Shown one piece after another: positions 2 through 62,416 of a stretch of DNA of 64,000 bases. How positions within the stretch are numbered: position 1 is the stretch's first letter; each line of letters opens with the position of its first letter. Source of the stretch: Acutalibacteraceae bacterium (GTDB taxonomy: Bacteria > Bacillota > Clostridia > Oscillospirales > Acutalibacteraceae); assembly GCA_045546915.1 (NCBI GenBank), contig JAZQDU010000008.1, forward strand, positions 34,291-98,290. Direction: 5' to 3'. The notes below the pieces were generated by a model. It had not been told where the DNA came from, searched no databases, and worked only from the letters and a program-made list of their open reading frames with translations. A program made the translations under genes and the position numbers.

Positions 2-2047
2 TATGCAAACACCGAAAAAATAATTGATGTTATAAATATGTTTTCCTGTGGAAACGTCGGTGCTTCGTGGAATATACGCGAGACGTTTTTTGTAGCCAAA
101 GAAACTGCAGAGCAGACCATTAAAATTTTGGGCGCTTATATTTGTAATGTAAGATTCGGCGACATGAAGGACGGGAAAAAAGTACTGCTTGGTGACGGCG
201 AGTTGCCGGTAGATGAGTTTGTTTTTGCATTGCGTTCGCTTAATTATGAGGGATATGCAGTTGTCGAGCCGAATGACGAAATTAATAATAACGATATTGT
301 TTTCACTCATTATGTTAATTTTATGTTGAGCGTTACCGACAGTTTCAGCAACAAACATACAGTTCAGCATAACCGTTCTAAAACAGGTGAGTTTGTTTGG
401 GAAAGATACTCGGTTATCGATAAAACCTTTTCTCAGGTGCTTGATACCATGGTAGACTATTTTCCTGACCAATATGCTTTCAAATACACAACGCTTGATT
501 ATACGAGAACATATTCGGAGTTTAGGCGTGACGTTGACCGCGTAGCGGCATCGCTTATAGCAATGGGCGTTAAACCCGGATATCATGTTGCAATTTGGGC
601 AACCAATGTGCCTCAGTGGTTTTTGACGTTTTGGGCAACTGTTAAAATAGGTGCTGTGCTTGTAACCGTAAACACTGCTTATAAATTACATGAGGCTGAG
701 TATCTGCTTCGTCAGTCAGATACTCATACTTTGGTTATGATTGAGGACTGTAAAGACTCAAATTATAAGGAAATCATTGAAACACTTTGTCCCGAACTTA
801 AAACTTTAGAGGCAGGCAAACCGCTTCATTGCAAAAACTTGCCGTTCCTTAAAAATATTGTAACGGTAGGCTTTAATATGGATGGCTGCCTTACCTGGGA
901 GCAAATGCTTGACCTTTCTGATCGAGTGCCGGTAGAGGAAGTTCGTCGCAGGGCTGCAGAGGTAAAACCGGATGATGTATGCAATATGCAGTACACCTCG
1001 GGTACAACCGGATTTCCAAAAGGTGTTATGCTCACCCACAGAAACATTGTAAATAACGGTAAAATAATAGGCGATAGAATGGATTTGTCCACCGCTGACC
1101 GTATGATGGTTCAGGTGCCGATGTTCCATTGTTTTGGCATGGTGCTTTCTATGACTTCTACCATGACACACGGCGGTACACTTTGTCCTATGCCGTATTT
1201 TTCACCAAAATCTTCGCTTGCTTGCATAAATAATGAAAAAATCACCTGTTTTAACGGTGTTCCTACCATGTTTATTGCTATGTTTGCGCATGAGGATTTT
1301 GCCAAGACTGATTTTTCCTATATCCGTACCGGTATTATGGCGGGTGCGAACTGTCCTGCTGACCTTATGAGAAGAGCCGCTGATGAAATGAATATGAAAG
1401 AAATTATCAGCGTTTACGGACAGACCGAAGCATCTCCCGGTTGCACAATGGGTGAGGTTAATGAGGATATCGACCACCGTGTTGAAACGGTTGGTTCGGC
1501 ATTCCCGGGTGTCGAATGTAAGATTATCGACCCTGAAACAGGTGAAGAACTGCCCGACGGTGAAAACGGCGAGTTTGTCGCACGCGGATATAACATTATG
1601 AAGGGTTATTACAAAATGCCTAAGGCAACAGCTTCTACTATTGATAAAGAGGGCTGGCTTCATTCGGGCGATATTTGTTGCCGCACACCCGACGGATATT
1701 ATAAGGTTACAGGTCGTCTTAAAGATATGATTATCCGTGGCGGTGAAAACCTTTATCCGAGAGAAATTGAGGAGTTCTATTTGGGACACAGCAAGGTTAA
1801 AGATGTTCAGGTTGTTGGTGTTCCCGATAAGCGATACGGTGAAGAGGCCTGTGCTTGGATAATTCTTAAAGACGGCGAAAGTTCCGACGAGAATGAAATG
1901 AGGGAGTATGGTAATAGTTTCATGGCTCGTCATAAGGTTCCGAGATACTTTATATTTACAAATGAGTTCCCGATGAATGCCGCAGGTAAAATTTTGAAGT
2001 ATAAAATGCGTGATATGTCGATCGAAAAACTCGGCATTGATGGTTGA
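2..2047 (+). CDS. AMP-dependent acyl-CoA ligase with an N-terminal xylose-isomerase-like TIM-barrel segment; 5' partial because the frame is open to the window edge
   Basis: No in-frame stop between nt 2 and the ATG at 38. AMP-binding motifs YTSGTTGFPKGVMLTH, YGQTE, HSGD and GKILK are present. The first ~110 aa (..NYEGYAVVEP..) resemble the C-terminus of sugar-phosphate isomerase/epimerase TIM barrels. Confidence 0.75.
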   Translation, partial: YANTEKIIDVINMFSCGNVGASWNIRETFFVAKETAEQTIKILGAYICNVRFGDMKDGKKVLLGDGELPVDEFVFALRSLNYEGYAVVEPNDEINNNDIVFTHYVNFMLSVTDSFSNKHTVQHNRSKTGEFVWERYSVIDKTFSQVLDTMVDYFPDQYAFKYTTLDYTRTYSEFRRDVDRVAASLIAMGVKPGYHVAIWATNVPQWFLTFWATVKIGAVLVTVNTAYKLHEAEYLLRQSDTHTLVMIEDCKDSNYKEIIETLCPELKTLEAGKPLHCKNLPFLKNIVTVGFNMDGCLTWEQMLDLSDRVPVEEVRRRAAEVKPDDVCNMQYTSGTTGFPKGVMLTHRNIVNNGKIIGDRMDLSTADRMMVQVPMFHCFGMVLSMTSTMTHGGTLCPMPYFSPKSSLACINNEKITCFNGVPTMFIAMFAHEDFAKTDFSYIRTGIMAGANCPADLMRRAADEMNMKEIISVYGQTEASPGCTMGEVNEDIDHRVETVGSAFPGVECKIIDPETGEELPDGENGEFVARGYNIMKGYYKMPKATASTIDKEGWLHSGDICCRTPDGYYKVTGRLKDMIIRGGENLYPREIEEFYLGHSKVKDVQVVGVPDKRYGEEACAWIILKDGESSDENEMREYGNSFMARHKVPRYFIFTNEFPMNAAGKILKYKMRDMSIEKLGIDG

Positions 2048-2060
2048 TAGGGGTGGTATT

Positions 2061-2861
2061 ATGCACCCTATAGTTGATTGTCACTGTCATATATACCCCG
2101 AAAAAATTGCCTCAAAAGCCGTAGAAAGTATCGGAAAATTTTACGATATTCCTATGGTTTGTGGTGGCACTGTTTCGGACATGATTAATGCCGAAAGAAA
2201 AGCAGGGGTTACGCATTGTATTGTTTTTTCGGTTGCAACTAAACCTGCACAGATTCAATCTATCAATAATTTTATCGCAGGAGAAGTGAAAAAATCGGAC
2301 GGGTTTATGACGGGACTCGGCACTTTGCACCCGGATAGCACCGATGTTGAGGGTGATATTGAACACCTTATTTCATTAGGGCTTAAAGGTGTAAAATTCC
2401 ATCCAGATTTTCAAAAGTTCGCAATAGACGAAGAACGTGCCGTTAGAATTTATGAAATTTGCGACAAAAAGGGCTTGCCTGTACTTTTTCATACAGGGGA
2501 CAGCCGTTATAAATTTTCTAATCCCGAAAATGTAGAGCCGATACTTAAAAGATTTAAAAATCTTACAGTAATAGGCGCTCATTTGGGCGGTTGGTCAATT
2601 TGGGAAAAGGCTGTTGATACTTTGAGTAAGTACGACAATTTTTATGTAGATTGTTCGTCGGCACTTTATGCGATAACACCCGAAAAAGCCAAAGATGTAA
2701 TAAGAAAATACGGCGCTAAACGGGTAATGTTTGCTACCGATTATCCAATGTGGAACCCTAAAGAAGAACTTGAACGTTTTTATGCTTTGGGGTTAACAAA
2801 GGAAGAAAATGAGCAAATTCTTTATAAAACCGCAAAAAAAGTATTCAATTTATCGATTTAA
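2061..2861 (+). CDS. Amidohydrolase-family (TIM-barrel metal-dependent) hydrolase
   Basis: ATG at 2061 follows GGGGTGG. The N-terminus is HPIVDCHCHIYPE (HxH metal motif), with later ..FHPDFQ.., ..FHTGD.. and ..FATDYP... The 2010 start in the ORF track overlaps the upstream gene. Confidence 0.7.
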   Translation: MHPIVDCHCHIYPEKIASKAVESIGKFYDIPMVCGGTVSDMINAERKAGVTHCIVFSVATKPAQIQSINNFIAGEVKKSDGFMTGLGTLHPDSTDVEGDIEHLISLGLKGVKFHPDFQKFAIDEERAVRIYEICDKKGLPVLFHTGDSRYKFSNPENVEPILKRFKNLTVIGAHLGGWSIWEKAVDTLSKYDNFYVDCSSALYAITPEKAKDVIRKYGAKRVMFATDYPMWNPKEELERFYALGLTKEENEQILYKTAKKVFNLSI

Positions 2862-2875
2862 AGTGAAATAAATGC

Positions 2876-2904
2876 TTGACAAATTGAAAATTTGAGCGTA
2901 TAAT
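2876..2904 (+). promoter_or_regulatory. Sigma-A type promoter (TTGACA-17-TATAAT)
   Basis: TTGACA at 2876-2881, an exact 17-nt spacer, TATAAT at 2899-2904. It lies directly upstream of the T-box leader. Confidence 0.75.
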
Positions 2905-2910
2905 ACAGTA

Positions 2911-3190
2911 AAATCTTTAAAGGCTATGACGAAGACGGAGAATTTTTAGTTCTCACAGAGAGTCGGGGATGGTGTGAACCCGACAGAATGAAAAGTTCAA
3001 TCCCATCACTTCCGAGCCGAAGACCTGAACGTTTTTATTAGTAGGCGTCTTCCGTGACTGCTACGTTAGTGCATAGGATTTGTCAGAATCCGAAGTGGCG
3101 TTTTTACGCAATTTGAGTGGTACCGCGGGTACGAATAGTTTGTTCGACTCGTCTCAAAGAAAACCTTTGAGACGAGTCTTTTTATTTTTC
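2911..3190 (+). promoter_or_regulatory. T-box riboswitch leader, predicted specifier AUC (Ile)
   Basis: Stem I base is GGCUAUGACGAAG (2922-2934) paired with CUUCCGAGCC (3009-3018), a GA/K-turn. AG bulge CAGAGAGUCGG, distal loop GGUGUGA, T-box motif AAUUUGAGUGGUACCGCG (3110-3128) and a terminator are present. The 3' side of the specifier loop reads ..CCC AUC A|CUUC, with the codon at 3005-3007. Confidence 0.85.
3146..3190 (+). terminator. Intrinsic terminator of T-box leader 1
   Basis: GACTCGTCTCAAAG / CTTTGAGACGAGTC 14-bp stem followed by TTTTTATTTTT. It sits 3' of the T-box motif and 5' of the RBS. Confidence 0.85.
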
Positions 3191-3208
3191 TTGAAAGGAG
3201 AAACCAAA

Positions 3209-5476
3209 ATGAGTACAAAAAACACAATGACTGAATTATCCGAGGTTGCATCGCGAATTAAGGAGATGCGCGAGATAATGGGTTGGACGGCAGCCGAAAT
3301 GGCCGAAAAGACCGAGGTGACCGAAGAAATTTATAATATGTACGAAAGTGGTGAGGATGACCTTCCGTTCTCGTTTATTTATAAATGTGCTAAGGTGTTT
3401 GATATTCAGATGACACAGTTGCTTGAAGGTAAAACAGCAAGACTGTCATCGTATACTGTCACAAGAAAGGGTCAAGGACAGACCACTGTTGATGAGGATG
3501 GCATTGTTATACGCAATCTGGCTCCTAAATTTAAGGATAAAATCTCCGAACCATACATGGTACGTTATGAATATTCGGCAGAGCTTCAAAACCGCCCCAT
3601 TCATTTGACAACCCATTCAGGTCAGGAGTTTGACCTTGTTTTGGAAGGCTCCTTGAAGGTTCAGGTTGGAGAACATACTGAGGTTCTCAATGAGGGCGAT
3701 AGTATTTATTACAATTCTTCAACACCCCATGGTATGATTGCCGTTGGCGGTAAGGACTGCGTTTTTTGTGCAGTTGTTCTTCCCGGTGAGGAAACTGAGG
3801 AGCAGACCGTTACTAAAAGTATTGCAAGGGCTCGTTCAACGCAAACTCTCGTTTGTGAGAAGTTTGTTAAGGCAGAAGAGGACGAAAACGGATGTTTGAA
3901 ATCTATCGAATTCCCTAATAAAGAAACTTTTAACTTTGGTTTTGATATAGTAGACGGTATCGCTGAAAAATATCCCGAAAAATTAGCGATGATTCATGTT
4001 GACAAAAATATGACCGAGCGTAAATTTACGTTTGCTGATATAAAGAGAGCGTCTTCGCAGGTTGCTAACTATTTTGCATCACTTGGGATCAAAAAAGGCG
4101 ACCGCGTAATGCTCGTTCTTAAAAGACATTATCAGTTCTGGTTTTCTATGGTAGCATTGCATAAATTAGGTGCAATAGCAATTCCTGCTACACATCAGCT
4201 TAAAGACCACGACTTTGAGTATCGCTTTAATGCAGCAGGTGTTTCGGCGATTGTTTGTACCTCGGATGACGATGTTTATAAAATTGTAGATGTAGCGCAA
4301 GCAAAATCTCCCACTCTTAAAACCAAAATTTTGGTTGGTGGTAGCGCTGAAGGTTGGCACGATTTTGATGCTGAATACGGTAGGTTTTCGGGTAAGTTTA
4401 ATCGTACTGAAGATTCATCGTGCGGTGACGAAGCTGCTTTGATGTTCTTTACTTCGGGCACTACCGGTAATCCTAAAATGGCTTGCCATAAGCATACCTA
4501 TGCGTTAGGTCATTTTGTTACCGCTAAATATTGGCATTGTTGCGAACGTGAGGGATTACACTTAACCATTTCCGATACAGGTTGGGGTAAATCTCTTTGG
4601 GGTAAACTTTACGGTCAGTGGTTGTGCGAGGGGGCAGTCTTTGTATATGACTTCGACCGCTTTAATGCTGCCGATATTTTACCAATGTTTGCAAAATACA
4701 ATATCACTACCTTCTGTGCACCTCCTACAATGCTCCGTATGTTAATTAAGGAAGATTTGTCTAAGTACGACCTTTCTTCTATCCACCATATGACCACTGC
4801 AGGCGAGGCGTTAAACCCTGAAGTATTCCGCCAGTTTGAGGCTGCTACAGGCTTGCAGATAATGGAAGGCTTCGGTCAGACCGAAACAACACTTACTATA
4901 GCAAACCTTGTAGGTACTACTCCAAAACTCGGTTCTATGGGTAAAGCATCACCTCAGTACAATATTGATATAGTCGACCCTGACGGCAACTCGGTACCAA
5001 CGGGTGAAACGGGTGAGATTGTTATCCGCCTTGACGGTAATACTCCTTGCGGACTGTTTAAGGAATATTATCTTGATGACGAAAAGACAAACGAGGCAAT
5101 TTATGACGGTATGTATCATACAGGCGATACCGCATGGCGTGACGAGGACGGTTATTTCTGGTACGTAAGCCGTATAGATGACGTTATTAAGTCTTCGGGC
5201 TACCGTATTGGACCTTTCGAAATCGAAAGCGTAATTATGGAATTGCCGTATGTTTTAGAATGTGGTGTTTCGGCGGCACCTGACGAGGTTAGAGGTCAGG
5301 TTGTAAAGGCAAGTATTGTGCTTACAAAGGGTACCGAACCTACCGAGGAACTTAAAAAAGAAATTCAAGCTTATGTTAAAGAGCATACGGCACCGTATAA
5401 GTATCCGAGGGTTGTTGTTTTCCGTGACGAATTACCTAAAACTATAAGCGGTAAGATTCAAAGAAATAAACTTTGA
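3209..5476 (+). CDS. Fusion protein: XRE-type HTH + cupin domain + AMP-forming (medium/short-chain) acyl-CoA synthetase
   Basis: AAGGAG at 3195-3200 precedes the ATG at 3209. The N-terminus has an HTH (IKEMREIMGWTAAEMAEKTEV..) and a cupin (HSGQEFDLVLEG..GDSIYYNSSTPHGM). The synthetase part has FFTSGTTGNPKM, GFGQTETT, YHTGD, SSGYRIGPFEIE and PKTISGKIQR. Confidence 0.88.
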   Translation: MSTKNTMTELSEVASRIKEMREIMGWTAAEMAEKTEVTEEIYNMYESGEDDLPFSFIYKCAKVFDIQMTQLLEGKTARLSSYTVTRKGQGQTTVDEDGIVIRNLAPKFKDKISEPYMVRYEYSAELQNRPIHLTTHSGQEFDLVLEGSLKVQVGEHTEVLNEGDSIYYNSSTPHGMIAVGGKDCVFCAVVLPGEETEEQTVTKSIARARSTQTLVCEKFVKAEEDENGCLKSIEFPNKETFNFGFDIVDGIAEKYPEKLAMIHVDKNMTERKFTFADIKRASSQVANYFASLGIKKGDRVMLVLKRHYQFWFSMVALHKLGAIAIPATHQLKDHDFEYRFNAAGVSAIVCTSDDDVYKIVDVAQAKSPTLKTKILVGGSAEGWHDFDAEYGRFSGKFNRTEDSSCGDEAALMFFTSGTTGNPKMACHKHTYALGHFVTAKYWHCCEREGLHLTISDTGWGKSLWGKLYGQWLCEGAVFVYDFDRFNAADILPMFAKYNITTFCAPPTMLRMLIKEDLSKYDLSSIHHMTTAGEALNPEVFRQFEAATGLQIMEGFGQTETTLTIANLVGTTPKLGSMGKASPQYNIDIVDPDGNSVPTGETGEIVIRLDGNTPCGLFKEYYLDDEKTNEAIYDGMYHTGDTAWRDEDGYFWYVSRIDDVIKSSGYRIGPFEIESVIMELPYVLECGVSAAPDEVRGQVVKASIVLTKGTEPTEELKKEIQAYVKEHTAPYKYPRVVVFRDELPKTISGKIQRNKL

Positions 5477-5479
5477 TAC

Positions 5480-5508
5480 TTGACAAATAGCGACATATTT
5501 GGTATAAT
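5480..5508 (+). promoter_or_regulatory. Sigma-A type promoter with extended -10 (TTGACA-17-TGgTATAAT)
   Basis: TTGACA at 5480-5485, a 17-nt spacer ending in TGG, TATAAT at 5503-5508. It starts 4 nt after the upstream stop codon. Confidence 0.75.
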
Positions 5509-5514
5509 TCCAAA

Positions 5515-5792
5515 ATAAAGGCTTTGACGAAGAGGGCAGGATTTTTAGTGTTTTCAGAGAGTCGGCGTTGGGTGTGAGTCCGGCATCACGTTTTCTTTGC
5601 TTGTAACTTCTGAGCTGAAAGGAAGAACAGCGTTTTGCTTAGTAGAACCTTTCCGTTACGGCTACGTTAGTGCATAGGGCTTAGTGAGCCTGAGTGGTGC
5701 GAATATAGTGTTTGCGCAATTTGAGTGGTACCGCGGGATATAAAGTTTTTATAGCTCGTCTCAAAGGAAATGCTTTGAGGCGGGCTTTTATT
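5515..5792 (+). promoter_or_regulatory. T-box riboswitch leader, predicted specifier GUA (Val)
   Basis: Paralogous to leader 1. Base is GGCUUUGACGAAG (5520-5532) paired with CUUCUGAGCU (5607-5616). It has CAGAGAGUCGG, a GGUGUGA loop, AAUUUGAGUGGUACCGCG (5718-5735) and a terminator. The specifier loop reads ..UU GUA A|CUUC, with the codon at 5603-5605. Confidence 0.85.
5753..5792 (+). terminator. Intrinsic terminator of T-box leader 2
   Basis: AGCTCGTCTCAAAG / CTTTGAGGCGGGCT stem (with G-U pairs) followed by TTTTATT. Confidence 0.8.
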
Positions 5793-5845
5793 GTAAAACC
5801 TATGGTTTCGCCTCGAAAGACAACTTCTATTTTTGGAGGTACTTT

Positions 5846-8152
5846 ATGAAGACAACCGGTCTCGAATTTAAAATTAAAGAAATGGCTAAGCGTATTGCCG
5901 ACCTTAGAGAGATTGTCGGCCTTACCACAGCCGAAATGGCACTTCACACCGGTGTTAGCGAAGAGGAGTATCTTGCTTGCGAGGCAGGCGAGCGCGACCT
6001 TAACTTTGCTTTCCTTTACCGCTGTGCTTTAGCGTTAAAGGTTGACGTTACCGATATTATTGAGGGTAGCAGTCCCCGTCTTGCAGGCTATACGGTGACA
6101 AGAAGGGGAGAAGGTCAGCGAATTGAGGAGGCTCATGGGCTTAGATACTACAATCTTGCCGCATCGTTTAAAAATCGTATTGCTGAGCCTTTGTATGTTG
6201 TTACCGAATATAACGAGGAAGCACAGAATGCCGATATCGAACTCACTGCCCACCAGGGACAGGAGTGCGATATAATCATAAAAGGTGCTCTAAAAGTTCA
6301 GATTGGCGACCATGTTGAGATACTTCACGAAGGTGACAGCATATATTATGACAGTTCGGTTCCTCACGGAATGATTGCGGTTGAAGGTAACGAATGTACC
6401 TTTTATGCTATTGTTCTTAACCCTCAGGGTGAACCTATTGACCATATGGTTCACGGTGGTGTTAAAGAGTTTACATTGGCTTCAAAGCGTCCTTCAGTTG
6501 CTCATGAGATGGCTGTGGAGGACCGCGTTTGGGAGGACTTTGTAATTCCTACCGAAAACGAGAATGGAACAATTACTAAAATTGACTTTAAGAATGAAGA
6601 TAACTTCAACTTTGCTTTTGATGTTATCGACCGATTAGGTCGTGAAAAGCCTGACAAATTGGCAATGGTTCATCTTGACCGCGAACGTAATGAACGCAAG
6701 TTCACTTTCGCTGATATAAAACGTGCTTCGTCGCAGACTGCTAACTACTTCAAATCTTTGGGTATTGGCAAGGGCGATAAAGTTATGCTTATCTTAAAGC
6801 GTCATTATCAGTTCTGGTTCTCAATTTTGGCTTTACATAAACTCGGCGCAGTTGCTATTCCTGCAACCAATCAACTTAAAGAGCACGATATTACTTATCG
6901 TATCAATGCCGCAGGCGTAAAAGCGGTTATTTGTACTGCCGACGGCGAAGTGTCCAACGAGGTTGATATTGCTGCCAAACACTGTGAGTGCTTAGAGCAC
7001 AAGATTATGGTTGGCGGTAAAAAGGATGGCTGGAGAAACTTCGATGAGGAGTATAGCCTCTATACCGGTAAGTTTGAACGTACCGATGATTCGCCAAAAG
7101 GCAACGATACTATGCTTATGTATTTCACTTCGGGTACAACAGGCAATCCTAAAATCGCAGTACATAACTATAAATACCCGTTAGGACATTTTATAACTGC
7201 AAAATACTGGCATTGCGTAAACCCTGACGGAATTCACTTTACCATTTCAGATACAGGTTGGGCAAAGGCTGCTTGGGGTAAAATTTATGGTCAGTGGCTT
7301 TGCGAAACCGCATTGTTTGTTTACGATTTTGATAGATTTGATGCTGCAGATTTGTTGCCAATGTTTGCAAAATATAGCATTACTACATTCTGTGCGCCGC
7401 CTACAATGCTTCGTATGCTTGTTAAAGAGGATATTTCAAAGTATGATTTGTCTTCGGTTGAGCATATGACTACAGCAGGTGAGGCACTAAATCCTGAGGT
7501 GTTCCGTCAGTTTGAAAAGGCAACGGGACTTCAGATTATGGAAGGTTTCGGTCAGACCGAAACAACCTGTGCGCTCGCAAACCTTGTCGGAACAAGAACA
7601 AAGGTTGGCTCAATGGGTAAACCAGTACCGCTTTATGATATTAAATTGCTTGATGCCGACGGTAAAGAGGTAAGCGTTGGCGATGTAGGTGAAATATGTA
7701 TCAACATTTCTGAAAAAGTGCCGTGCGGTTTGTTCTGCGGTTATTTTAACGATAAAGAAAAAACCGATGAAGTTTGGCATGACGGATTCTATCATACCGG
7801 CGATACAGCATGGAAAGACGAAGATGGATATTTCTGGTATGTCGGACGTGTTGACGACGTTATCAAGTCATCTGGTTATCGCATAGGACCGTTTGAGATA
7901 GAAAACGTTATTATGGAATTGCCGTATGTTTTGGAATGTGGCGTTTCTGCTGCACCTGACGAAGTAAGAGGTCAGGTTGTTAAGGCAAGTATTGTACTTA
8001 CTAAAGGCACAGAGGCCACTGAAGAACTCAAAAAAGAAATTCAGAATTATGTCAAAAACAGAACAGCACCGTATAAATATCCGAGAATAGTTGTCTTCCG
8101 TGACGAATTACCCAAAACAGTTAGCGGAAAGATTCAACGTAATAAACTTTAA
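5846..8152 (+). CDS. Fusion protein: XRE-type HTH + cupin + AMP-forming acyl-CoA synthetase (paralog of 3209..5476)
   Basis: GGAGG at 5835-5839. Same three-domain layout as its paralog. The C-terminal ~110 aa are nearly identical to the paralog, while the central region is more diverged. Confidence 0.88.
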   Translation: MKTTGLEFKIKEMAKRIADLREIVGLTTAEMALHTGVSEEEYLACEAGERDLNFAFLYRCALALKVDVTDIIEGSSPRLAGYTVTRRGEGQRIEEAHGLRYYNLAASFKNRIAEPLYVVTEYNEEAQNADIELTAHQGQECDIIIKGALKVQIGDHVEILHEGDSIYYDSSVPHGMIAVEGNECTFYAIVLNPQGEPIDHMVHGGVKEFTLASKRPSVAHEMAVEDRVWEDFVIPTENENGTITKIDFKNEDNFNFAFDVIDRLGREKPDKLAMVHLDRERNERKFTFADIKRASSQTANYFKSLGIGKGDKVMLILKRHYQFWFSILALHKLGAVAIPATNQLKEHDITYRINAAGVKAVICTADGEVSNEVDIAAKHCECLEHKIMVGGKKDGWRNFDEEYSLYTGKFERTDDSPKGNDTMLMYFTSGTTGNPKIAVHNYKYPLGHFITAKYWHCVNPDGIHFTISDTGWAKAAWGKIYGQWLCETALFVYDFDRFDAADLLPMFAKYSITTFCAPPTMLRMLVKEDISKYDLSSVEHMTTAGEALNPEVFRQFEKATGLQIMEGFGQTETTCALANLVGTRTKVGSMGKPVPLYDIKLLDADGKEVSVGDVGEICINISEKVPCGLFCGYFNDKEKTDEVWHDGFYHTGDTAWKDEDGYFWYVGRVDDVIKSSGYRIGPFEIENVIMELPYVLECGVSAAPDEVRGQVVKASIVLTKGTEATEELKKEIQNYVKNRTAPYKYPRIVVFRDELPKTVSGKIQRNKL

Positions 8153-8157
8153 AGATT

Positions 8158-8814
8158 ATGAAAAGAGTAACACTTTTTGCAGGTCATTATGGAAGTGGCA
8201 AGACCAATATTGCGGTAAATTACGCGTTGTGGCTTAAAAGTCAGGGTAAGGATGTTATGATTGCTGACCTTGATATTGTCAATCCGTATTTTCGCACTAA
8301 GGACAGCGCTAAGGAGTTGGCGGACGCGAATGTCGAACTTATTTCGCCGCAGTTTGCAAATTCCAACGTTGACCTACCTGCGCTTCCTGCTGAGACCTAT
8401 AAGATAATTCAAAACAAGCAAAAATTTGCCGTGCTTGATATAGGCGGTGACGACCGAGGGGCGTATGCTTTAGGTCGTTATGCACCTGCTATTTTGGAAG
8501 AAAACGATTATGAAATGGTTTTTGTTGCCAACTTTTCAAGACCTCTCACAAGAACGCCCCAAGAGGCATTAGAGGTTATGCGTGAGATAGAGCAGGCAGG
8601 AAAAATCAAGTTTACGGCTATTGTTAATAACTCCAATATTGGAGAATTAACGACCGCAAATGACGTTTTGCAAACTAACGAAAAAGCAAAGGCTTTAAGT
8701 GAACTGTCAAGGCTGCCCGTAATTATGACAACGGCAGAAAAAAGAATAGCCGATGAATTACAATTAAAAATGCAAAATGTTTTTGCACTTAATTTACAGA
8801 AAAAACTTTTTTAA
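8158..8814 (+). CDS. P-loop NTPase of the MinD/ParA/CooC-like (SIMIBI) type
   Basis: N-terminal Walker A GHYGSGKT, then ..IADLDIVNPY.. and ..VLDIGGDD... It starts 6 nt after the synthetase stop with no terminator, so it is co-transcribed. Confidence 0.7.
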   Translation: MKRVTLFAGHYGSGKTNIAVNYALWLKSQGKDVMIADLDIVNPYFRTKDSAKELADANVELISPQFANSNVDLPALPAETYKIIQNKQKFAVLDIGGDDRGAYALGRYAPAILEENDYEMVFVANFSRPLTRTPQEALEVMREIEQAGKIKFTAIVNNSNIGELTTANDVLQTNEKAKALSELSRLPVIMTTAEKRIADELQLKMQNVFALNLQKKLF

Positions 8815-8829
8815 AAAGGGGAAAAGAAT

Positions 8830-9036
8830 ATGGCAAAGGTAACGTTTGATACCGACATTTGCAAAGGCTGTGGACTTTGTGTTACGGCCTGTCCTAAGGG
8901 CATTGTTAGGCTTGCTACGGACAAAATCAATAAAAAAGGATATTCTCCTGCGGAAATTACCGATGAGTCGAAATGCATTGGTTGTGCTTTCTGTGCAACC
9001 ATGTGTCCCGATTGCGTAATTACCGTTGAGAAATGA
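8830..9036 (+). CDS. 2x[4Fe-4S] ferredoxin; delta subunit of 2-oxoacid:ferredoxin oxidoreductase
   Basis: 68 aa with two CxxCxxCxxxCP motifs (CKGCGLCVTACP, CIGCAFCATMCP). It immediately precedes the alpha subunit. Confidence 0.85.
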   Translation: MAKVTFDTDICKGCGLCVTACPKGIVRLATDKINKKGYSPAEITDESKCIGCAFCATMCPDCVITVEK

Positions 9037-9046
9037 GGTGTAAATA

Positions 9047-10108
9047 ATGGCAGAAAAAGTACTTATGAAAGGTAACGAGGCTATTGCAGAGGCCGCTATC
9101 AGAGCAGGTTGTATGCATTACTTTGGTTATCCTATTACTCCGCAGACCGAAATTGCGGCTTATATGGCTAAAAGAATGCCTAAAATCGGCGGTGTATTTC
9201 TTCAGGCCGAGAGCGAAGTTTCGGCTATTAATATGGTTTATGGCGTTGCAGGTACCGGATACCGTGTAATGACTTCTTCGTCAAGCCCCGGTATTTCGCT
9301 TAAAGGCGAGGGCATTTCATACCTTGCCGGTAGTGACCTCCCTGCACTTATCGTCAATGTTCAGCGTGGCGGCCCCGGTCTTGGTGGTATTCAGCCTTCA
9401 CAGTCTGACTATTTCCAGGCAACTCGTGGCGGTGGACACGGTGACTATCATATTCTTGTTCTTGCACCTGCATCGGTTCAAGAAATGGCAGATATGACCG
9501 CAAAGTGTTTTGACCTTGCCGATAAATACCGTATGCCTGCTATGATTTTGGCAGACGGTACAATGGGTCAGATGATGGAACCGGTTGAACTTCCTGAACC
9601 TACCGAATACAAAAAGGAAAAAGATTGGGCGGTAACCGGTACAAAATGTGAGCGTAAACACAATATTATAAACTCTCTTTATCTCCAACCTGATGAACTC
9701 GAAAGAACTAACTTCGAGCGTTTTGAGCGTTATAAGCAGATTGAAGAGAACGAGACCATGTACGAAGAGTTTATGATGGAGGATGCCGAGATTTGCGTTG
9801 CAGCGTTCGGCATTGCTGCACGTGTTTCTAAAAACGCTATTATAGCAGCAAGGGCAGAGGGTATTAAGGTTGGTATGATTCGCCCGATTACTCTTTGGCC
9901 GTTCCCGAAAAAGCCTTTCTTAGAGGCAGCCGACAAGGTTAAAGAATTTATCTCGGTTGAACTTTCAATGGGTCAGATGATTGAAGACGTTAAACTTGCC
10001 ACTGAGTGCAAAAAGCCCGTAACTCTTTGCAACCGTACCGGTGGTATGATTCCCGAACCCGAGCAGGTGCTCGAAGCAATCAGAAAAGCAGCAGGAGGTA
10101 ACAAGTAA
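9047..10108 (+). CDS. vorB: 2-oxoacid:ferredoxin oxidoreductase alpha subunit (VorB-like, 3-methyl-2-oxobutanoate dehydrogenase (ferredoxin) type)
   Basis: N-terminus VLMKGNEAIAEAAIRAGC..FGYPITPQTEI is typical of OFOR alpha subunits. GAGGTG RBS. Substrate class is inferred from the T-box context, not from sequence alone. Confidence 0.8.
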   Translation: MAEKVLMKGNEAIAEAAIRAGCMHYFGYPITPQTEIAAYMAKRMPKIGGVFLQAESEVSAINMVYGVAGTGYRVMTSSSSPGISLKGEGISYLAGSDLPALIVNVQRGGPGLGGIQPSQSDYFQATRGGGHGDYHILVLAPASVQEMADMTAKCFDLADKYRMPAMILADGTMGQMMEPVELPEPTEYKKEKDWAVTGTKCERKHNIINSLYLQPDELERTNFERFERYKQIEENETMYEEFMMEDAEICVAAFGIAARVSKNAIIAARAEGIKVGMIRPITLWPFPKKPFLEAADKVKEFISVELSMGQMIEDVKLATECKKPVTLCNRTGGMIPEPEQVLEAIRKAAGGNK

Positions 10109-10863
10109 TGGCAGTTGTATTCCAAAAACCTAAGTCTTTGACCGATGCACCGCTTCATTACTGTCCCGGTTGCACACACGGTATTATTCATCGACTTGTT
10201 GCCGAGGCTATTGATGAACTCGGTATTGAGGGCAAGACCATAGGTGTTGCTCCTGTTGGCTGTGCTGTTATGGCATATAACTATTTCGCTTGCGATATGG
10301 TAGAGGCTGCTCACGGACGTGCACCCGCGGTTGCAACAGGACTTAAAAGAGCGTTGCCTGAAAACATTATTTTCACCTATCAGGGTGATGGCGACTTGGC
10401 TTCTATCGGTATGGCTGAAACTGTTCATGCCGCAACAAGAAATGAAAATATCACCGTTATTTTCGTAAACAATGCAATTTATGGTATGACCGGTGGTCAG
10501 ATGGCACCGACTTCTTTGCCCGGTCAGGTAACACAGACCTCTCCTTACGGACGCGATGTTAACACTGTGGGTTACCCCATTCGTGTTTCCGAAATGCTCG
10601 CAACCTTGGAAGGCCCTGAGTTTATTCAGCGTGTTGCAGTCAACAATGTTAAAAACGTAATGTCTGCTAAAAAGGCAATTAAAAAGGCATTCCAGAATCA
10701 GGTTGAGGGCAAAGGCTTCTCGCTTATTGAGGTTGTTTCAACCTGTCCTACCAACTGGGGTATGACACCTGAAAAGGCACTTAAATGGGTTGATGATAAT
10801 ATGTTGCCTTACTATCCTCTTGGTGTGTATAAGGACAGAAGTGCCGCAAAGGAGGAAAAGTAA
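10108..10863 (+). CDS. 2-oxoacid:ferredoxin oxidoreductase beta subunit (TPP-binding)
   Basis: YCPGCTHG.., a GDGD motif and ..NNAIYGMTGGQ.. match the TPP/[4Fe-4S] beta subunit pattern. The start overlaps the alpha stop (TAATG). Confidence 0.85.
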   Translation: MAVVFQKPKSLTDAPLHYCPGCTHGIIHRLVAEAIDELGIEGKTIGVAPVGCAVMAYNYFACDMVEAAHGRAPAVATGLKRALPENIIFTYQGDGDLASIGMAETVHAATRNENITVIFVNNAIYGMTGGQMAPTSLPGQVTQTSPYGRDVNTVGYPIRVSEMLATLEGPEFIQRVAVNNVKNVMSAKKAIKKAFQNQVEGKGFSLIEVVSTCPTNWGMTPEKALKWVDDNMLPYYPLGVYKDRSAAKEEK

Positions 10864-11403
10864 ATGAGTACTGTTAATATGCTTATTGCCGGCTTTGGCG
10901 GACAGGGTGTTCTTTTCGCAGGCAAGTTTATTGCCTACAAAGGTCTTTTAGAAGGTAAGGAACTTTCTTGGCTTCCTTCTTACGGCCCTGAGATGCGTGG
11001 TGGTACTGCTAACTGCAGCGTTATTTTAAGTGATATCCCCGTAGGCTCACCCATCGTCTCAAAACCCGATGTGCTTATGGCAATGAACCTCCCGTCGCTT
11101 GATAAGTATGAAGATACCGTTGTTTCGGACGGATACATTTTTGTAGATTCAACGCTTATCGACCGAAAGGTAGTCCGTTCTGATGTTAAGGCTTTTTATA
11201 TTCCTGCAACCAGACTTGCAAAAGAAGCAGGTTTCCCCACACTTGCCAATATGATTATGGTTGGCAAAATTATAAAAGAAGCAGGCATTGTTTCGCATGA
11301 GGGACTTACCGATGCTCTTAAAAAGGTAGTTTCAGCCAAGCGCGCAGAACTACTTGACGTTAACCTTAAAGCCATCGAAATTGGTTACAACTACGAAGGT
11401 TAA
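10864..11403 (+). CDS. 2-oxoacid:ferredoxin oxidoreductase gamma subunit
   Basis: N-terminus ..IAGFGGQGVLFAGK.. and ..SYGPEMRGGTA.. are typical of gamma subunits. It starts 1 nt after the beta stop. Confidence 0.85.
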   Translation: MSTVNMLIAGFGGQGVLFAGKFIAYKGLLEGKELSWLPSYGPEMRGGTANCSVILSDIPVGSPIVSKPDVLMAMNLPSLDKYEDTVVSDGYIFVDSTLIDRKVVRSDVKAFYIPATRLAKEAGFPTLANMIMVGKIIKEAGIVSHEGLTDALKKVVSAKRAELLDVNLKAIEIGYNYEG

Positions 11404-11411
11404 TTTTTAAA

Positions 11412-11440
11412 ACGGAAGTGATTTTTCACTTCCGTTTTTT
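11412..11440 (+). terminator. Intrinsic terminator ending the oxidoreductase operon
   Basis: ACGGAAGTGA / TCACTTCCGT stem followed by TTTTTT. Confidence 0.85.
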
Positions 11441-11994: not shown

Positions 11995-14073
11995 TTATAC
12001 TCTGAAAATTAAATCGCCATAAGAGGGAACAGGCCAGTATTCCTTGGCAGTAATTTTTTCGGCATTGTCAACTGCTGTACGAAGTTCGTCCATAATCGGG
12101 ATGATTTCGTCATGGAACATATCAGCTTGCTCTTTTCCGCAAAGTTTCGCTGCAAAAAGTGTTTTTTCTTCAAGTTCGTTCGATTTATCGTAAATAAAAT
12201 CATTTATAGTTGAAAGTTTACCTAAAATTGAGATTTCAGCCTTGCAAGCATTACCAAATTTGTTTTTTGCTTCAATAGCAGTAGCGAATTTGGTTGTATA
12301 TCTTACAATGGCGGGAATATAATCCTTACGAATCATATCAATAGCCGTCATGGCCTCAATGTTAATGGTTTTGGAGTAACTTTCAAGTTGTATTTCATAA
12401 CGTGAGCGAATTTCGGTCTCGCTGAAAACCTTGTGCTTTACAAAAACATCAATGTTTTTTGGCTCAATCATTTGAGGGAGTGCCTCTACGGTTGAAGCAA
12501 GGCTCAGAAGACCTCTCTTGGCGGCTTCGGCTTTCCATTCATCTGAATAACCGTTTCCGTTAAAAATAATGCGCTTGTGTTTTTTAACGGTGTCGCGTAC
12601 AAGTTCGTGGACTGCTTTTGTAAAGTCTTCTGCGTTTTCCAACACATCGGCAAACTCGCACAAAGCCTCAGCGACTATGGTGTTAAGTACTACATTGGGT
12701 TCGGCAACCGAGTCTGATGAGCCCAACATTCTAAACTCAAACTTGTTACCGGTAAAGGCGAAGGGTGATGTGCGGTTGCGGTCGGTGTTGTCTTTTGGGA
12801 AGGTTGGCAGAACGTCAACACCGAGTTTCATTTTAACTGCTTTTGCATCGGTGTAGTCAGAGCCGCTTTCAATAGACTCTAATATTGCCTGTAATTCGTC
12901 GCCTAAGAAAATAGATACAATAGCAGGCGGTGCTTCGCCTCCGCCCAAACGGTGGTCATTAGCAGCCGTTGCTACCGAGACTCTCATCATGCCCTGATAT
13001 TCGTCAACTGCCTTAATAACAGCGGCAAGGAAAAGCAAAAACTGTGCATTTTCAGACGGTGTTTTGCCGGGGTCGAGAAGATTAAGTTCTGTGTCGGTTG
13101 ACAAAGACCAGTTATTGTGTTTTCCGCTGCCGTTTACACCTTTAAAGGGTTTTTCATGTAAAAGGCAAACAAGACCGTGCTTTAAAGCGACCTTTTTGAG
13201 CATCTCCATGGTTAACTGGTTGTGGTCAACCGCTACATTGGCGGTGCCAAAAATCGGTGCCAATTCGTGCTGTGCGGGGGCTGCCTCATTGTGTTTGGTT
13301 TTGGCCATTACACCAAGTTTCCACAACTCTTTATCAAGGTCTTGCATAAAGGCAGAAATCCTGGGTTTTAACGCACCGAAATAGTGGTCATCAAGTTCCT
13401 GTCCTTTGGGAGCAGGTGCTCCAAAAAGTGTGCGGCCACAGTACATAAGGTCTTTTCTGCCGTCATAGTATTTTTTATCTACAAGAAAATATTCCTGCTC
13501 GGGACCTGCCGTTGTTATTACGCGGTTGGCAGTAGTGTTGCCAAAGAGACGTAAAATTCTTAAAGCCTGAGTTTCGAGTGCCGACATCGAACGAAGTAAA
13601 GGAGTCTTTTTATCCAAAGCGTCGCCGGTATATGAGCAAAAAGCAGTTGGAATACAAAGAGTGCCTTCTTTAACGAATGCGCACGAAGTCGGGTCCCATG
13701 CGGTGTATCCTCTGGCTTCGCAGGTGTCGCGAAGTCCGCCTGAAGGGAAAGAGGAAGCATCAGACTCGCCCTTAATTAATTCCTTGCCCGAAAACTCCAT
13801 TATAATATGTCCGTCTTCGCCGGGGGCAATAAAACTGTCGTGCTTTTCGGCAGTAATATTGGTCATAGGCTGGAACCAATGAGTGTAGTGTGTTGCACCT
13901 TTTTCAATGGCCCATTCCTTCATAACCGTGGCTATTGTGTTAGCAACGGTTTTGTCTAAAGGTTTGCCTTCATGAATGGTTTTTTTAAGAGCCTTGTATG
14001 CTTCGCTGGGCAATCTTTCTTTCATGACTGCCTCGCTAAAAACCTCACTTCCGAAAATTTCGGTGATTTTCAT
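11995..14073 (-). CDS. glnN: Glutamine synthetase, type III
   Basis: ~692 aa. N-terminus [14 protein letters not shown].. plus conserved GS catalytic-region strings (..[10 protein letters not shown].., ..[12 protein letters not shown]..). GGAGG lies 8 nt upstream of the ATG at 14073. Confidence 0.85.
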
Positions 14074-14136
14074 TTTTTCAACCTCCAAAAGGTTTAGTAA
14101 AAAGGTTTTTGATACCTCAGATTATTTATGTTGCAA

Positions 14137-22552: not shown

Positions 22553-23932
22553 TTAAAAATCAAGTTTCGACTTGATAAAAGCACCAAGTTCTTCTATTTT
22601 AACACGTTCTTGTTGCATCGTATCGCGGTCACGAATGGTAACGCATCCATCGGTTTCCGACTCAAAGTCATAAGTAATGCAGAACGGCGTGCCGATTTCG
22701 TCCTGACGGCGGTAACGCTTGCCAATAGAACCTGCGTCGTCAAAATCAATCATATAATCTTTGCAGAGCATATCGCGAACCTTGCTTGCTTGCTCGGAAA
22801 GTTTCTTCGAAAGGGGAAGAACAGCAGCCTTGAAAGGTGCTAATGCGGGATGCAAGTGAAGTACTACACGTACGTCGTTCCTTTCGGCGTCGACAACCTC
22901 TTCGTCATAAGCGTCGCAAAGGAAAGCAAGCAATACGCGGTCACAACCCAAAGACGGCTCAACAACGTAAGGAATATATTTCTCGTTGGTTTCGGGGTCG
23001 AAGTATTCTAAAGTTTTACCGCTGGCTTCCTGATGACGGCCAAGGTCGTAATTAGTACGGTCAGCAATACCCCAAAGCTCGCCCCATCCAAACGGGAAAA
23101 GGAACTCGATATCGGTAGTAGCCTTAGAATAGAAAGAAAGTTCTTCCTTTTCATGGTCGCGCATACGGATATTTTCTTCCTTTATGCCAAGGTTCAAGAG
23201 CCAATTTTTGCAATAATCTTTCCAGTAATAGAACCACTCAAGGTCTGTATTGGGTTTGCAGAAGAACTCACATTCCATCTGTTCAAACTCGCGGGTACGG
23301 AAAATAAAGTTACCGGGAGTGATTTCATTTCTGAACGATTTGCCTATCTGACAAACACCAAAGGGCAATTTTTTACGGGTGGTACGCTGAATGTTTGCAA
23401 AGTTAACAAAAATACCCTGAGCAGTTTCGGGACGGAGGTAAACTTCGTTTTTAACGTCCTCGGTTACACCTATAAAGGTTTTAAACATAAGATTGAATTT
23501 ACGGATATTGGTAAAGTTTTTGCTTCCGCAATCGGGGCAGGCAATACCGTTTTCCTTAATGTATTCTTCCATCTGTTCAAAGTCCATACCTTCGGCATGA
23601 CCGCCGGCGTCTTCAATAAGTTTGTCGGCTCTGTGACGTGCACGGCAATCCTTACAGTCCATAAGAGGGTCAGAAAAACCGCCAACGTGACCGCTGGTCA
23701 CCCAGGTTTCGGGATTCATGATAATAGCCGAATCAAGACCTACGTTATAGGGTGACTCCTGAACAAACTTTTTAAACCATGCTTTTTTTACATTGTTTTT
23801 GAGTTCAACACCTAAAGGGCCGTAGTCCCAACTGTTGGAAAGACCTCCGTAAATTTCTGAACCGGCATAAACAAATCCACGGTTTTTGGCAAGATTAACA
23901 ACAGTTTCCATGTTTTTGTCTTGATTTAACAT
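22553..23932 (-). CDS. glyQS: Glycine--tRNA ligase (dimeric class II GlyQS type)
   Basis: ..[31 protein letters not shown].. is the hallmark N-terminus. GGAGG lies 7 nt before the ATG at 23932. Confidence 0.9.
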
Positions 23933-24049
23933 ATCCAAACCTCCATATTAACGCAAAAATCATATAGAATAAGTATATAACTTTTTTAGGTTTTGTCAAG
24001 AAATATCGGCTAATTTTAGACATAAAATCTCTTTATGTGTTTGTCGAGT

Positions 24050-31433: not shown

Positions 31434-31522
31434 GGAGAGGTATCGAAGTGGTCATAACGAGGCGGTCTTGAAAACCGTTTGGGGGCAACCCCACAAGGGT
31501 TCGAATCCCTTCCTCTCCGCCA
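31434..31522 (+). tRNA. tRNA-Ser (anticodon UGA)
   Basis: GGAGAGG acceptor stem pairs with CCTCTCC. Anticodon loop is CTTGAAA. It has a long variable arm, a GGTTCGAATCC T-arm and an encoded CCA. Confidence 0.9.
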
Positions 31523-31572
31523 TTGTTATTTACAGCTTTGCTGTTTAAATAAAGTAAAAATTAAGGCAACAT

Positions 31573-31663
31573 GGAGTAGTACTCAAGTTGGTGAAGAGGC
31601 GCCCCTGCTAAGGGCGTAGGTCGGGTAACCGGCGCAAGAGTTCAAGTCTCTTCTACTCCGCCA
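31573..31663 (+). tRNA. tRNA-Ser (anticodon GCU)
   Basis: GGAGTAG acceptor stem pairs with CTACTCC. Anticodon loop is CTGCTAA. It has a long variable arm, an AGTTCAAGTCT T-arm and an encoded CCA. Confidence 0.9.
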
Positions 31664-54386: not shown

Positions 54387-54905
54387 TTAGATTTTGTTAT
54401 ACAGTTCATTTATTTCTCGATTTCGTCTTTTTTGTCCAAAGTATTGTGACAAGCAACTTATTGGCAAATATAAGATAAATTGTATTGCTACAAGGCACAG
54501 ATGTATTTTGCCTTGAGGTATTTTTGGAGATGGTATATGCGGTGCAAAAATTGCTTGTGCAATATCTTGTGCTGAAGAAGCAAAGTGTGGACCATAAAAA
54601 TTGATGCTATAGCAAATGATGTGTTGTAATAAAAAAAGAATAATTAGAGTGAAGAAAGATAGAACGATATTATGCTTTTTTTCCTTATAGCCTGTTTTGA
54701 AAAACAAAATAGCTAAACCAACCGACATTCCAATAGTTTCAAGACCAGACCTAACTATTTTTTCTGAAAAAACTGATAATTCAAAAATAATTTCGATTGG
54801 ATATAACAAAAGGATTTCAACCAACAAACCTATCCAAAGCGAACAAAAATAGTTAACGAAAACAGAAAACGCATTGTTGAGAAAAAGTTTTTTACTTGTG
54901 TCCAA
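54387..54905 (-). CDS. Hypothetical integral membrane protein
   Basis: TTG start. ~5 TM segments. AT-rich coding sequence. No family recognised. Confidence 0.5.
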   Translation of the reverse strand: MDTSKKLFLNNAFSVFVNYFCSLWIGLLVEILLLYPIEIIFELSVFSEKIVRSGLETIGMSVGLAILFFKTGYKEKKHNIVLSFFTLIILFLLQHIICYSINFYGPHFASSAQDIAQAIFAPHIPSPKIPQGKIHLCLVAIQFILYLPISCLSQYFGQKRRNREINELYNKI

Positions 54906-54922
54906 TATTTTCGCCCCGCATT

Positions 54923-56331: not shown

Positions 56332-56337
56332 TTAATT

Positions 56338-56366
56338 AGTATATCACACATTTGGAGTTTTTACAA
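56338..56366 (-). promoter_or_regulatory. Candidate sigma-A promoter (TTGTAA-17-TGaTATACT on the minus strand)
   Basis: On the plus strand, AGTATA at 56338-56343 and TTACAA at 56361-56366. The predicted start coincides with the first base of the outer palindrome arm (~56331). Confidence 0.45.
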
Positions 56367-60637: not shown

Positions 60638-60666
60638 TACTTCATTATTGTGTGTTGGAGATTGTT

Positions 60667-62414: not shown

Positions 62415-62416
62415 AA

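Follow-up and report, generated by a model that had tools for sequence, protein, structure and literature searches.

T-boxes are leader RNAs that turn genes on when an amino acid is short: the NCCA end of the uncharged transfer RNA (tRNA) pairs with a UGGN sequence in the leader and stabilises an antiterminator. The described members of the family (Rfam RF00230), such as those of tyrS, glyQS and the ilv-leu operon (a Leu T-box) in Bacillus subtilis, precede genes for tRNA synthetases, classical biosynthesis enzymes or transporters. A second piece of background, dating from the 1960s, is that anaerobes of the rumen and gut require isobutyrate, 2-methylbutyrate and isovalerate, or make use of them, in building valine, isoleucine and leucine, which is why dairy cows receive branched volatile fatty acids in their feed. 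Labelling work by Allison, Bryant and Robinson in that decade reportedly established reductive carboxylation of these acids in rumen bacteria, and the reaction inferred from it, in which an acyl-coenzyme A (acyl-CoA), CO2 and reduced ferredoxin give a 2-oxoacid, is the one proposed here. In this article, we describe a locus in a 64,000-nucleotide stretch of DNA (hereafter the window) from an Acutalibacteraceae bacterium (contig JAZQDU010000008.1, positions 34,291 to 98,290), in which T-box leaders with isoleucine and valine specifiers precede two acyl-CoA ligases and a four-subunit 2-oxoacid:ferredoxin oxidoreductase. We estimate at about 75% the probability that this cluster is a salvage system controlled by tRNA charging, which would convert 2-methylbutyrate to isoleucine and isobutyrate to valine. 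Taken singly, T-boxes, ligases of this group, oxoacid:ferredoxin oxidoreductases and the physiology seen by labelling are familiar, and their combination is apparently undescribed: in T-box regulon surveys (PMC2494555, PMC3766115, PMC7778990) and the literature searched we found no link between a T-box and an acyl-CoA ligase or such an oxidoreductase, an earlier mention being possible.

The genes and leaders at 2-11438 of the window are all on the plus strand, and each of the two leaders is preceded by a constitutive sigma-70 promoter. Promoter P1 (2876-2904; TTGACA-17-TATAAT, 12/12 consensus) stands before leader 1 (2917-3159), which matches RF00230 with 90.5 bits (E 1.1e-19) over model positions 1-219 of 219 and comprises stem I (2922-3017), the T-box sequence (3110-3127) with its UGGU bulge (3118-3121), and an intrinsic terminator (3146-3178) with a 14-base-pair stem, seven G-C pairs and a U-run, whose fold has an energy of -30.7 kcal/mol (z -4.8). 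Promoter P2 (5480-5508; likewise TTGACA-17-TATAAT, 12/12 consensus, with a TG extension) stands before leader 2 (5515-5766), which matches the same model with 86.7 bits (E 9.6e-19), again over positions 1-219 of 219, and has its stem I at 5520-5615, its T-box sequence at 5718-5735, its UGGU at 5726-5729 and, in the fold, an intrinsic terminator with a 14-base-pair stem and a U-run at 5753-5786. The motifs CAGAGAGUCGG, GGUGUGA and AAUUUGAGUGGUACCGCG are readable in both leaders, the last coinciding with the T-box sequence, and the 3′ strand of the antiterminator (CUCGUCUCA) is also the 5′ strand of the 14-base-pair terminator, so the two structures compete. In the Rfam alignment, stem I has the K-turn/GA base, the internal specifier loop, the AG bulge and the distal loop. 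An earlier interpretation made from the letters alone (hereafter the sequence-only reading) had proposed two complete T-box leaders with consensus promoters, and the motifs, UGGU bulges and terminators that it quoted are indeed present at, or at most 3 nucleotides from, the positions it gave.

The full transcriptional architecture is thus that of the RF00230 T-boxes of B. subtilis, with which the window leaders share the K-turn base, specifier loop, AG bulge, distal loop, Stem II/IIA-B and III region, the 14-nucleotide T-box sequence with UGGN, the mutually exclusive antiterminator and terminator and a connection with the supply of the cognate amino acid. They differ in preceding acyl-CoA ligases and an oxidoreductase, and in two details of the specifier loop, in which the canonical AGUA/GAA S-turn is missing from both leaders and the codon is not followed on its 3′ side by the conserved purine. 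The missing S-turn explains why the Rfam scores stay low. When the whole window was scanned at Rfam gathering scores, only three tRNAs and no T-box were returned; this default result was overturned by a scan of 2800-5900 in E-value mode, which gave the full-length matches above against a gathering score of 93 bits. Isoleucine and valine leaders of this lineage score 86-91 bits on RF00230, both in the window and at a related locus (L047, 5696-5937 and 9694-9949), and annotation that applies the gathering score would therefore not report them. As pipelines use this score, the link between T-boxes and these genes may have been overlooked so far for the same reason. Leaders 1 and 2 are clear paralogues by sequence comparison, and among 51 anchored isoleucine-class leaders the -35 box and an extended -10 box (TGTG.TATAAT) are conserved. 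P2 starts 4 nucleotides past the stop codon of the first ligase gene, lig1; since no terminator separates this gene from leader 2, transcription begun at P1 continues into leader 2.

The specifiers were read from the Rfam alignment, in which the four loop positions that immediately precede the CUUC strand read AUC-A in leader 1 (3005-3008, specifier AUC at 3005-3007) and GUA-A in leader 2 (5603-5606, specifier GUA at 5603-5605). These are the triplets that the sequence-only reading had obtained from a hand fold; they specify tRNA-Ile (anticodon GAU) and tRNA-Val (anticodon UAC), and the UGGU bulges predict an A73 discriminator on both tRNAs. A Leu T-box at L047, which scores 119.3 bits and is thereby above the gathering score, has CUC-A in the identical register and lies upstream of a leuA-like gene. 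The minimum-energy fold of leader 1 stem I exposes C-AUC-A as a single strand; that of leader 2 stem I is non-canonical (z +1.3), and here the covariance alignment was preferred. To place the two leaders among relatives, we fetched 79 loci from uncultured gut and rumen Clostridia, built our own covariance model of stem I from 99 leaders and searched it against these loci and the window, where leaders 1 and 2 score 73.4 and 78.3 bits, respectively. The model finds 127 leaders, with the specifiers AUC (60), GUA (39), GUC (4), CUC (14), CUG (6) and others (4), so that AUC, GUA or GUC is found in 103 of them. Because synonymous switches between GUA and GUC and between CUC and CUG occur at the specifier, its reading frame is fixed. 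Among 98 distinct leaders, pair 2-106 of stem I is G-C in 74, A-U in 24 and unpaired in none, compensatory changes occur in 6/6 pairs of the distal helix, and the AGAGA and GGUG motifs are invariant or almost so among the aligned sequences. RNAalifold, applied to a MAFFT alignment of the 99 stem I sequences, recovered the distal helix only, for which reason the basal helices were set by hand for the pair counts and the model.

Each specifier class stands upstream of its own distinct gene set. The first downstream gene encodes a ligase with an N-terminal helix-turn-helix (HTH) and cupin module behind 58/60 AUC leaders and 41/43 GUA or GUC leaders, and a LeuA-like protein (HMGL-like plus LeuA_dimer domains) behind 19/20 CUC or CUG leaders. 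The ligase family is widespread, with at least 8000 matches in a protein search, in uncultured gut and rumen Clostridia, and at least 598 species with a confirmed match in a scan of one genome per species. Two features of the isoleucine leaders weigh against the proposed system and would suit another explanation, namely that the specifier has been misplaced, that these leaders read the +1 triplet UCN (serine) or some other tRNA, and that the match with branched-chain amino acids is coincidental: the base 3′ of the isoleucine specifier is A, C or G in place of the usual conserved purine, and the +1 frame (UCA, UCC or UCG) consequently encodes serine throughout. The lack of canonical S-turn motifs in the specifier loop also counts in its favour. 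We nevertheless find a misplaced specifier very improbable, since in homologous valine leaders (GUA/GUC) the +1 frame gives the stop codons UAG or UAA and in homologous leucine leaders (CUC/CUG) a mixture of Ser, Trp and Cys, and since the leucine leaders, in the same register, precede leuA-like genes. In addition, the A of AUC is invariant (60/60 leaders), and the thermodynamic fold exposes the C-AUC-A strand. The base 3′ of the codon varies in the leucine class too, so a non-purine at this position is best regarded as a trait of the lineage.

The genes controlled by the two leaders encode paralogous ligases with 63% identity, both composed of an XRE-family HTH, a cupin_2 domain and an adenosine monophosphate (AMP)-forming acyl-CoA synthetase: lig1 (3209-5476, 755 residues) and lig2 (5846-8152, 768 residues). 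Both score above the Pfam cut-offs for AMP-binding (224 bits) and AMP-binding_C (74-76 bits). The best NCBIfam model for both is MbcS (NF047394), with 441 and 443 bits against an equivalog cut-off of 850, and we have accordingly not filed them as MbcS orthologues. The solved structure closest to lig2 is 3ETC, MacsMa of Methanosarcina acetivorans (646 bits, E 5e-193, residues 250-766). MacsMa prefers 2-methylbutyrate as substrate and has, in place of the pocket Trp of the acetate enzyme Acs, a Gly together with an alternative pocket Trp (PMC10455477); MbcS of Staphylococcus aureus accepts 2-methylbutyrate and isobutyrate for activation, and isovalerate hardly at all (PMC10026030). In both window ligases the position of Acs Trp414 is likewise Gly (in EGFGQTET) and the alternative Trp of MacsMa (in AKYW) is kept, which bears out the expectation of the sequence-only reading that these enzymes are not of the acetate type. 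On this basis, Lig1 is a putative 2-methylbutyrate-CoA ligase and Lig2 a putative isobutyrate-CoA ligase. MacsMa is thus a close homologue of the catalytic domains, and it resembles the isoleucine-class ligases further in having Gly after the Trp of the DxGW motif; the window ligases differ from it in about 245 additional N-terminal residues (the XRE-HTH and cupin_2 part), in their T-box control and in forming two paralogous classes, one pocket residue (Gly/Ala) apart. MbcS, by comparison, resembles the proposed pair in being selective for the alpha-branched 2-methylbutyrate and isobutyrate and poor on isovalerate, but it has no HTH-cupin module, serves in lipid primer supply and is a single enzyme for both acids, where two specialised paralogues, each gated by its own tRNA, are proposed here.

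The specifier and the ligase appear to have changed together. In a neighbour-joining tree of 95 full-length ligases, 38/39 ligases behind valine leaders form one clade that includes no ligase behind an isoleucine leader. The exception is found at L013 (7329-12283), where the two paralogues are nearly identical: the ligase behind the valine leader has the isoleucine-leader ligase of the same locus as its closest relative and carries Gly, not Ala, at the class-specific pocket position, a pattern that probably reflects recent gene conversion between tandem paralogues. Five alignment columns separate the classes cleanly, of which four are conservative changes in the HTH-cupin part and one lies in the catalytic domain. 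The latter is Ala in 38/38 valine-class ligases (Ala473 in lig2) and Gly in 55/55 isoleucine-class ligases (Gly460 in lig1), and it is again Ala in 120/120 further homologues of the lig2 type. The residue comes directly after the Trp of the DTGW motif, and the two together align with Salmonella Acs W309-V310, which T311 follows; V310 and T311 are two of the four residues of the acetate pocket. That the ligase for the acid with one carbon fewer should carry the bulkier Ala is chemically plausible. Since leaders 1 and 2 are clear paralogues, the origin of the cluster would fit a duplication of leader plus ligase, followed by a switch of the specifier and a one-residue change in the acyl pocket; Wels et al. 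(PMC2494555) describe T-boxes that evolved by duplication and a subsequent specifier switch. A Gly/Ala switch that tracks the AUC/GUA switch would make this family a clean natural case of a riboswitch and an enzyme co-evolving their specificity after duplication.

The gene order shows that leader 1 gates lig1 and leader 2 gates lig2, a P-loop gene and the oxidoreductase. The genes from lig2 through the gamma subunit gene follow one another with gaps of 0-15 nucleotides, and the oxidoreductase is encoded as four separate subunits, with thiamine pyrophosphate (TPP) and [4Fe-4S] domains, in consecutive genes. These are the delta subunit (8830-9036; two ferredoxin-like [4Fe-4S] sites, Pfam Fer4_7 and Fer4, PorD_KorD below cut-off), the alpha subunit (9047-10108; POR_N and PFOR_II), the TPP-binding beta subunit (10108-10863; PF02775, TPP_enzyme_C) and the gamma subunit (10864-11403; PF01558, POR, 123.6 bits). 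The operon ends at an intrinsic terminator (11409-11438) with a 13-base-pair stem and a U-run, a clean end that had been placed at 11412-11440 before. As regards the assignment to the VOR type made in the sequence-only reading, alpha passes the model of the VorB subfamily (NF005507, 559 against a cut-off of 399), and beta, gamma and delta stay under every NCBIfam cut-off. The nearest PDB entries of alpha are 1YD7 (a 2-ketoacid enzyme from Pyrococcus) and the 2-oxoglutarate enzymes 8YS5 and 6N2N, those of beta being the beta subunits of 8YS5 and 6N2N, and the specificity of the oxidoreductase can therefore not be read from the sequence alone. The VOR enzymes of Thermococcales and methanogens have the same four-subunit delta/alpha/beta/gamma build as the one described here; the present genes differ in being bacterial, in sharing an operon with a ligase, a P-loop gene and usually an aminotransferase, and in being switched by tRNA charging, with a specificity that is suggested by context. 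The P-loop gene (8158-8814; Walker A GHYGSGKT) lies between the ligase and the delta gene, an arrangement conserved in relatives, in which homologues were found in 44 open reading frames across the loci. Its product has no sequence match in the PDB and only weak Pfam matches to CbiA/ParA, below the cut-offs, and it is a candidate maturation or accessory factor for the oxidoreductase.

Relatives typically have an isoleucine leader with a ligase, then a valine leader followed by ligase, P-loop, delta, alpha, beta and gamma genes, and then a gene of about 355 codons, which encodes the branched-chain aminotransferase IlvE (NF009897, 447-498 bits against an equivalog cut-off of 307). This aminotransferase gene lies directly 3′ of gamma in 14/20 of the valine runs that have a gene there, so that acid activation, carboxylation and transamination form one valine-gated transcription unit in most species. 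Most isoleucine-leader operons consist of the ligase alone. In species with a single ligase (L049, L051, L053, L055, L056 and L066), an AUC leader drives the ligase, the P-loop gene and the oxidoreductase, and in some of these the operon includes the aminotransferase. Genes following the aminotransferase at some loci, which we had considered as leuCD, are methionine genes (HTS, Cys_Met_Meta_PP) and a sporulation gene. At four loci (L023:12277-13065, and also L056, L066 and L027) a carbon-nitrogen hydrolase gene of the nitrilase/omega-amidase type (PF00795) adjoins the aminotransferase; an omega-amidase would render a glutamine-dependent transamination irreversible.

This layout bears on two other explanations of the cluster. 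In the first, the main purpose of the ligases would be to supply FabH with isobutyryl-CoA and 2-methylbutyryl-CoA as primers, as MbcS does in S. aureus, and the T-boxes would turn on the salvage of external acids when isoleucine and valine, the usual source of primers, are scarce. MbcS is the best NCBIfam model of both ligases, an isoleucine leader most often controls a ligase only, and the "on when short" logic of a T-box would also suit a shortage of primers. The oxidoreductase of the valine operon and the aminotransferase found in most relatives, however, are superfluous for primer synthesis, and, if run oxidatively, they would consume valine exactly when it is scarce; moreover, the specifier tracks the ligase clade and its pocket residue, and a leuA-like operon with a Leu T-box adjoins, both of which point to amino acid supply. 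We therefore consider lipid priming unlikely as the main role, noting that the two uses are not mutually exclusive.

In the second explanation, which we rate somewhat lower still, the substrates differ: the isoleucine-gated ligase would activate propionate, from which reductive carboxylation would make 2-oxobutyrate and the ordinary ilv pathway then isoleucine, and the valine set would act on another acid. The route from propionate by way of 2-oxobutyrate to isoleucine is established in anaerobes, and an oxidoreductase with a specificity that the sequence leaves undecided would accommodate it. MacsMa can adenylate propionate, but it completes the two-step reaction with 2-methylbutyrate and not with most other acids (PMC10455477). 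Further, the Gly/Ala difference in the pocket suits a pair of alpha-branched C5 and C4 acids; no ilv genes were found in the cluster or among the annotated genes of the window, which lie outside 54387-63617; and the aminotransferase directly follows the oxidoreductase, from which it follows that the product of the latter is already the final 2-oxoacid.

For the salvage of branched acids, the following sequence of events can be proposed, largely from homology and gene context. The free 3′ end of an uncharged tRNA-Ile or tRNA-Val would pair with the UGGU bulge of the corresponding leader, stabilise the antiterminator and allow read-through into the genes downstream. Lig1, with Gly460, would then activate 2-methylbutyrate, and Lig2, with Ala473, isobutyrate, each to the acyl-CoA and with conversion of adenosine triphosphate (ATP) to AMP, the direction in which AMP-forming ligases run. 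The oxidoreductase, of a class known to be reversible, would use reduced ferredoxin and CO2 to convert the two acyl-CoAs to 2-oxo-3-methylvalerate and 2-oxoisovalerate, respectively, from which an aminotransferase, presumably encoded elsewhere in this genome, would make isoleucine and valine; 2-oxoisovalerate could in addition serve the LeuA-like enzyme encoded in the neighbouring operon with the Leu T-box. The same enzymes might instead be thought to degrade valine and isoleucine to branched fatty acids, with T-boxes that are incidental or decayed, and it is indeed from the oxidative reaction in amino-acid fermenters that oxoacid:ferredoxin oxidoreductases are best known. We give this catabolic alternative hardly any weight, because T-boxes induce on lack of the amino acid, the opposite of what a catabolic operon needs, because AMP-forming ligases conserve no energy in the thioester-cleaving direction, and because each leader is intact, having a promoter, a match over the whole model and a terminator, and is conserved in 103 relatives.

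To the irregular base after the isoleucine specifier and its serine frame, several points have to be added on the negative side of the balance for branched-acid salvage. Both leaders miss the RF00230 gathering score by a few bits. The rule by which seed leaders were picked demanded a 4-base-pair basal helix, so the 100% pairing of this helix is partly circular and independent covariation is limited to pair 2-106 and the distal helix. No gene for tRNA-Ile or tRNA-Val is present in the window, which has two tRNA-Ser genes and one tRNA-Thr gene, or in 60 of the loci. The substrates assigned to the ligases and the oxidoreductase are suggested by homology and context, and the best NCBIfam matches of beta, gamma and delta, all under their cut-offs, are enzymes of the 2-oxoglutarate type. 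The valine operon of the window has no aminotransferase gene, nor did tblastn find one in the 64 kilobases. Finally, the oxidoreductase lies behind the valine leader only and should not be induced by isoleucine starvation alone: because transcripts from P1 pass through leader 2, its induction always needs uncharged tRNA-Val, and a cell starved for isoleucine alone would rely on basal expression or read-through, or on another oxidoreductase.

The system is real, conserved and well supported, and the function proposed for it is a prediction from sequence. If correct, it would tell which genes, under which control, lie behind an observation made 60 years ago on rumen and gut bacteria, for which we found no assignment of bacterial genes or their regulation to branched-acid use in the literature searched. 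The candidate gene set would be two specialised ligases, a carboxylating oxidoreductase with its P-loop accessory protein and an aminotransferase, and the logic of their control would mark the amino acid that each enzyme serves. The cluster could then be used as a marker for predicting dependence on branched acids in metagenomes, and the T-box regulon would be extended to acid activation and ferredoxin-dependent carboxylation. A wider interpretation, which we hold only tentatively and would sooner bet against, is that the cluster is the sole route to valine and isoleucine (and, by way of 2-oxoisovalerate, to leucine) throughout a large clade of uncultured Clostridia from gut and rumen, that these bacteria are obligate cross-feeders, that the HTH-cupin module provides a second layer of control and that the Leu operon carries out a still undescribed chemistry for leucine supply. 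In that case, branched acids released by amino-acid fermenters would each be admitted by their own tRNA-gated ligase, and the HTH-cupin module would sense a small molecule, either in end-product feedback or as part of a BirA-like enzyme and repressor.

The N-terminal HTH-cupin module (3209-3940 in lig1 and 5846-6580 in lig2), which is conserved across the ligase family, and the Leu T-box operon upstream of the two units had, like the missing S-turn of the specifier loops, escaped the sequence-only reading. The one PDB match of the module, to the HTH_3/cupin regulator 1Y9Q, is weak, and near the promoters no conserved palindrome that could serve as an operator for the HTH was found, only the -35 box, the extended -10 box and an A-rich upstream stretch. 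The domain composition suggests a sensor, which may act in feedback sensing or, by analogy, in the manner of a BirA-like enzyme and regulator. BirA is likewise an adenylate-forming enzyme fused to an N-terminal HTH, but it has no homology to the window ligases, next to whose promoters no operator is apparent, and the cupin domain suggests ligand sensing in place of co-repression by an adenylate.

Upstream of P1, the window begins inside a gene (2-2047) that runs off its 5′ end and encodes the 3′ part of a fusion between a TIM barrel (AP_endonuc_2) and a FadD-like acyl-CoA ligase; by tblastn, 2-2038 aligns to residues 146-832 of an 841-residue protein at L017, and the TIM barrel of this fusion of about 840 residues is xylose-isomerase-like. 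It is followed by an Amidohydrolase_2 gene (2061-2861; PF04909, 124 bits), for which we take the ATG at 2061, giving 266 residues, as the start (the open reading frame lister starts at a GTG at 2010) and which is syntenic with L047 4800-5600. In relatives, the order behind CUC or CUG leaders is, in 19/20 cases, LeuA-like, FadD-like, Amidohydro_2 (for example L047:610-5600 and L017:16827-21053), with a LeuA-like protein of about 460 residues that falls below the equivalog cut-offs for isopropylmalate synthase. By synteny with L047, which is 92% identical, 2-2861 is probably the end of a Leu-specific T-box operon whose leader would lie beyond the window. As these genes follow a leuA-like gene with a Leu T-box in relatives, the locus can be described as three tandem T-box units, for leucine, isoleucine and valine. 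The FadD-like ligase of the first unit could activate isovalerate, and a separate ligase for this acid fits with the fact that MbcS hardly takes it.

Several minor observations were made on the surroundings and in the related loci. A type III glutamine synthetase gene (11995-14088) is convergent to the valine operon. A third copy of a T-box-like motif, TGGTACCGCG, on the minus strand near 35865 (35850-35880) is a chance match inside a B12-binding radical-SAM gene (35202-36851) and not a T-box. The window also encodes, on the minus strand, a class II aminoacyl-tRNA synthetase of 461 residues (22553-23938; tRNA-synt_2b and HGTP_anticodon), upstream of which the scan at the Rfam gathering score, the only mode of scan applied there, detected no T-box. 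A tRNA-Ser(UGA)/tRNA-Ser(GCU) pair at 31434-31663 recurs at L015:9344-9567, about 120 nucleotides upstream of the valine leader, a small neighbourhood shared with the window. At two further loci (L070:15572-17675 and L068:12644-14283), a T-box of 101.8 bits, above the gathering score, precedes genes for a PaaK-like phenylacetate-CoA ligase and an ACT-domain protein. Its loop GAAUUCCU reads UUC (Phe) in the canonical register of GAA plus codon and UCC (Ser) in the strict register of the model, and the unit may be an aromatic analogue of the system described here, making phenylalanine from phenylacetate under the control of tRNA charging.

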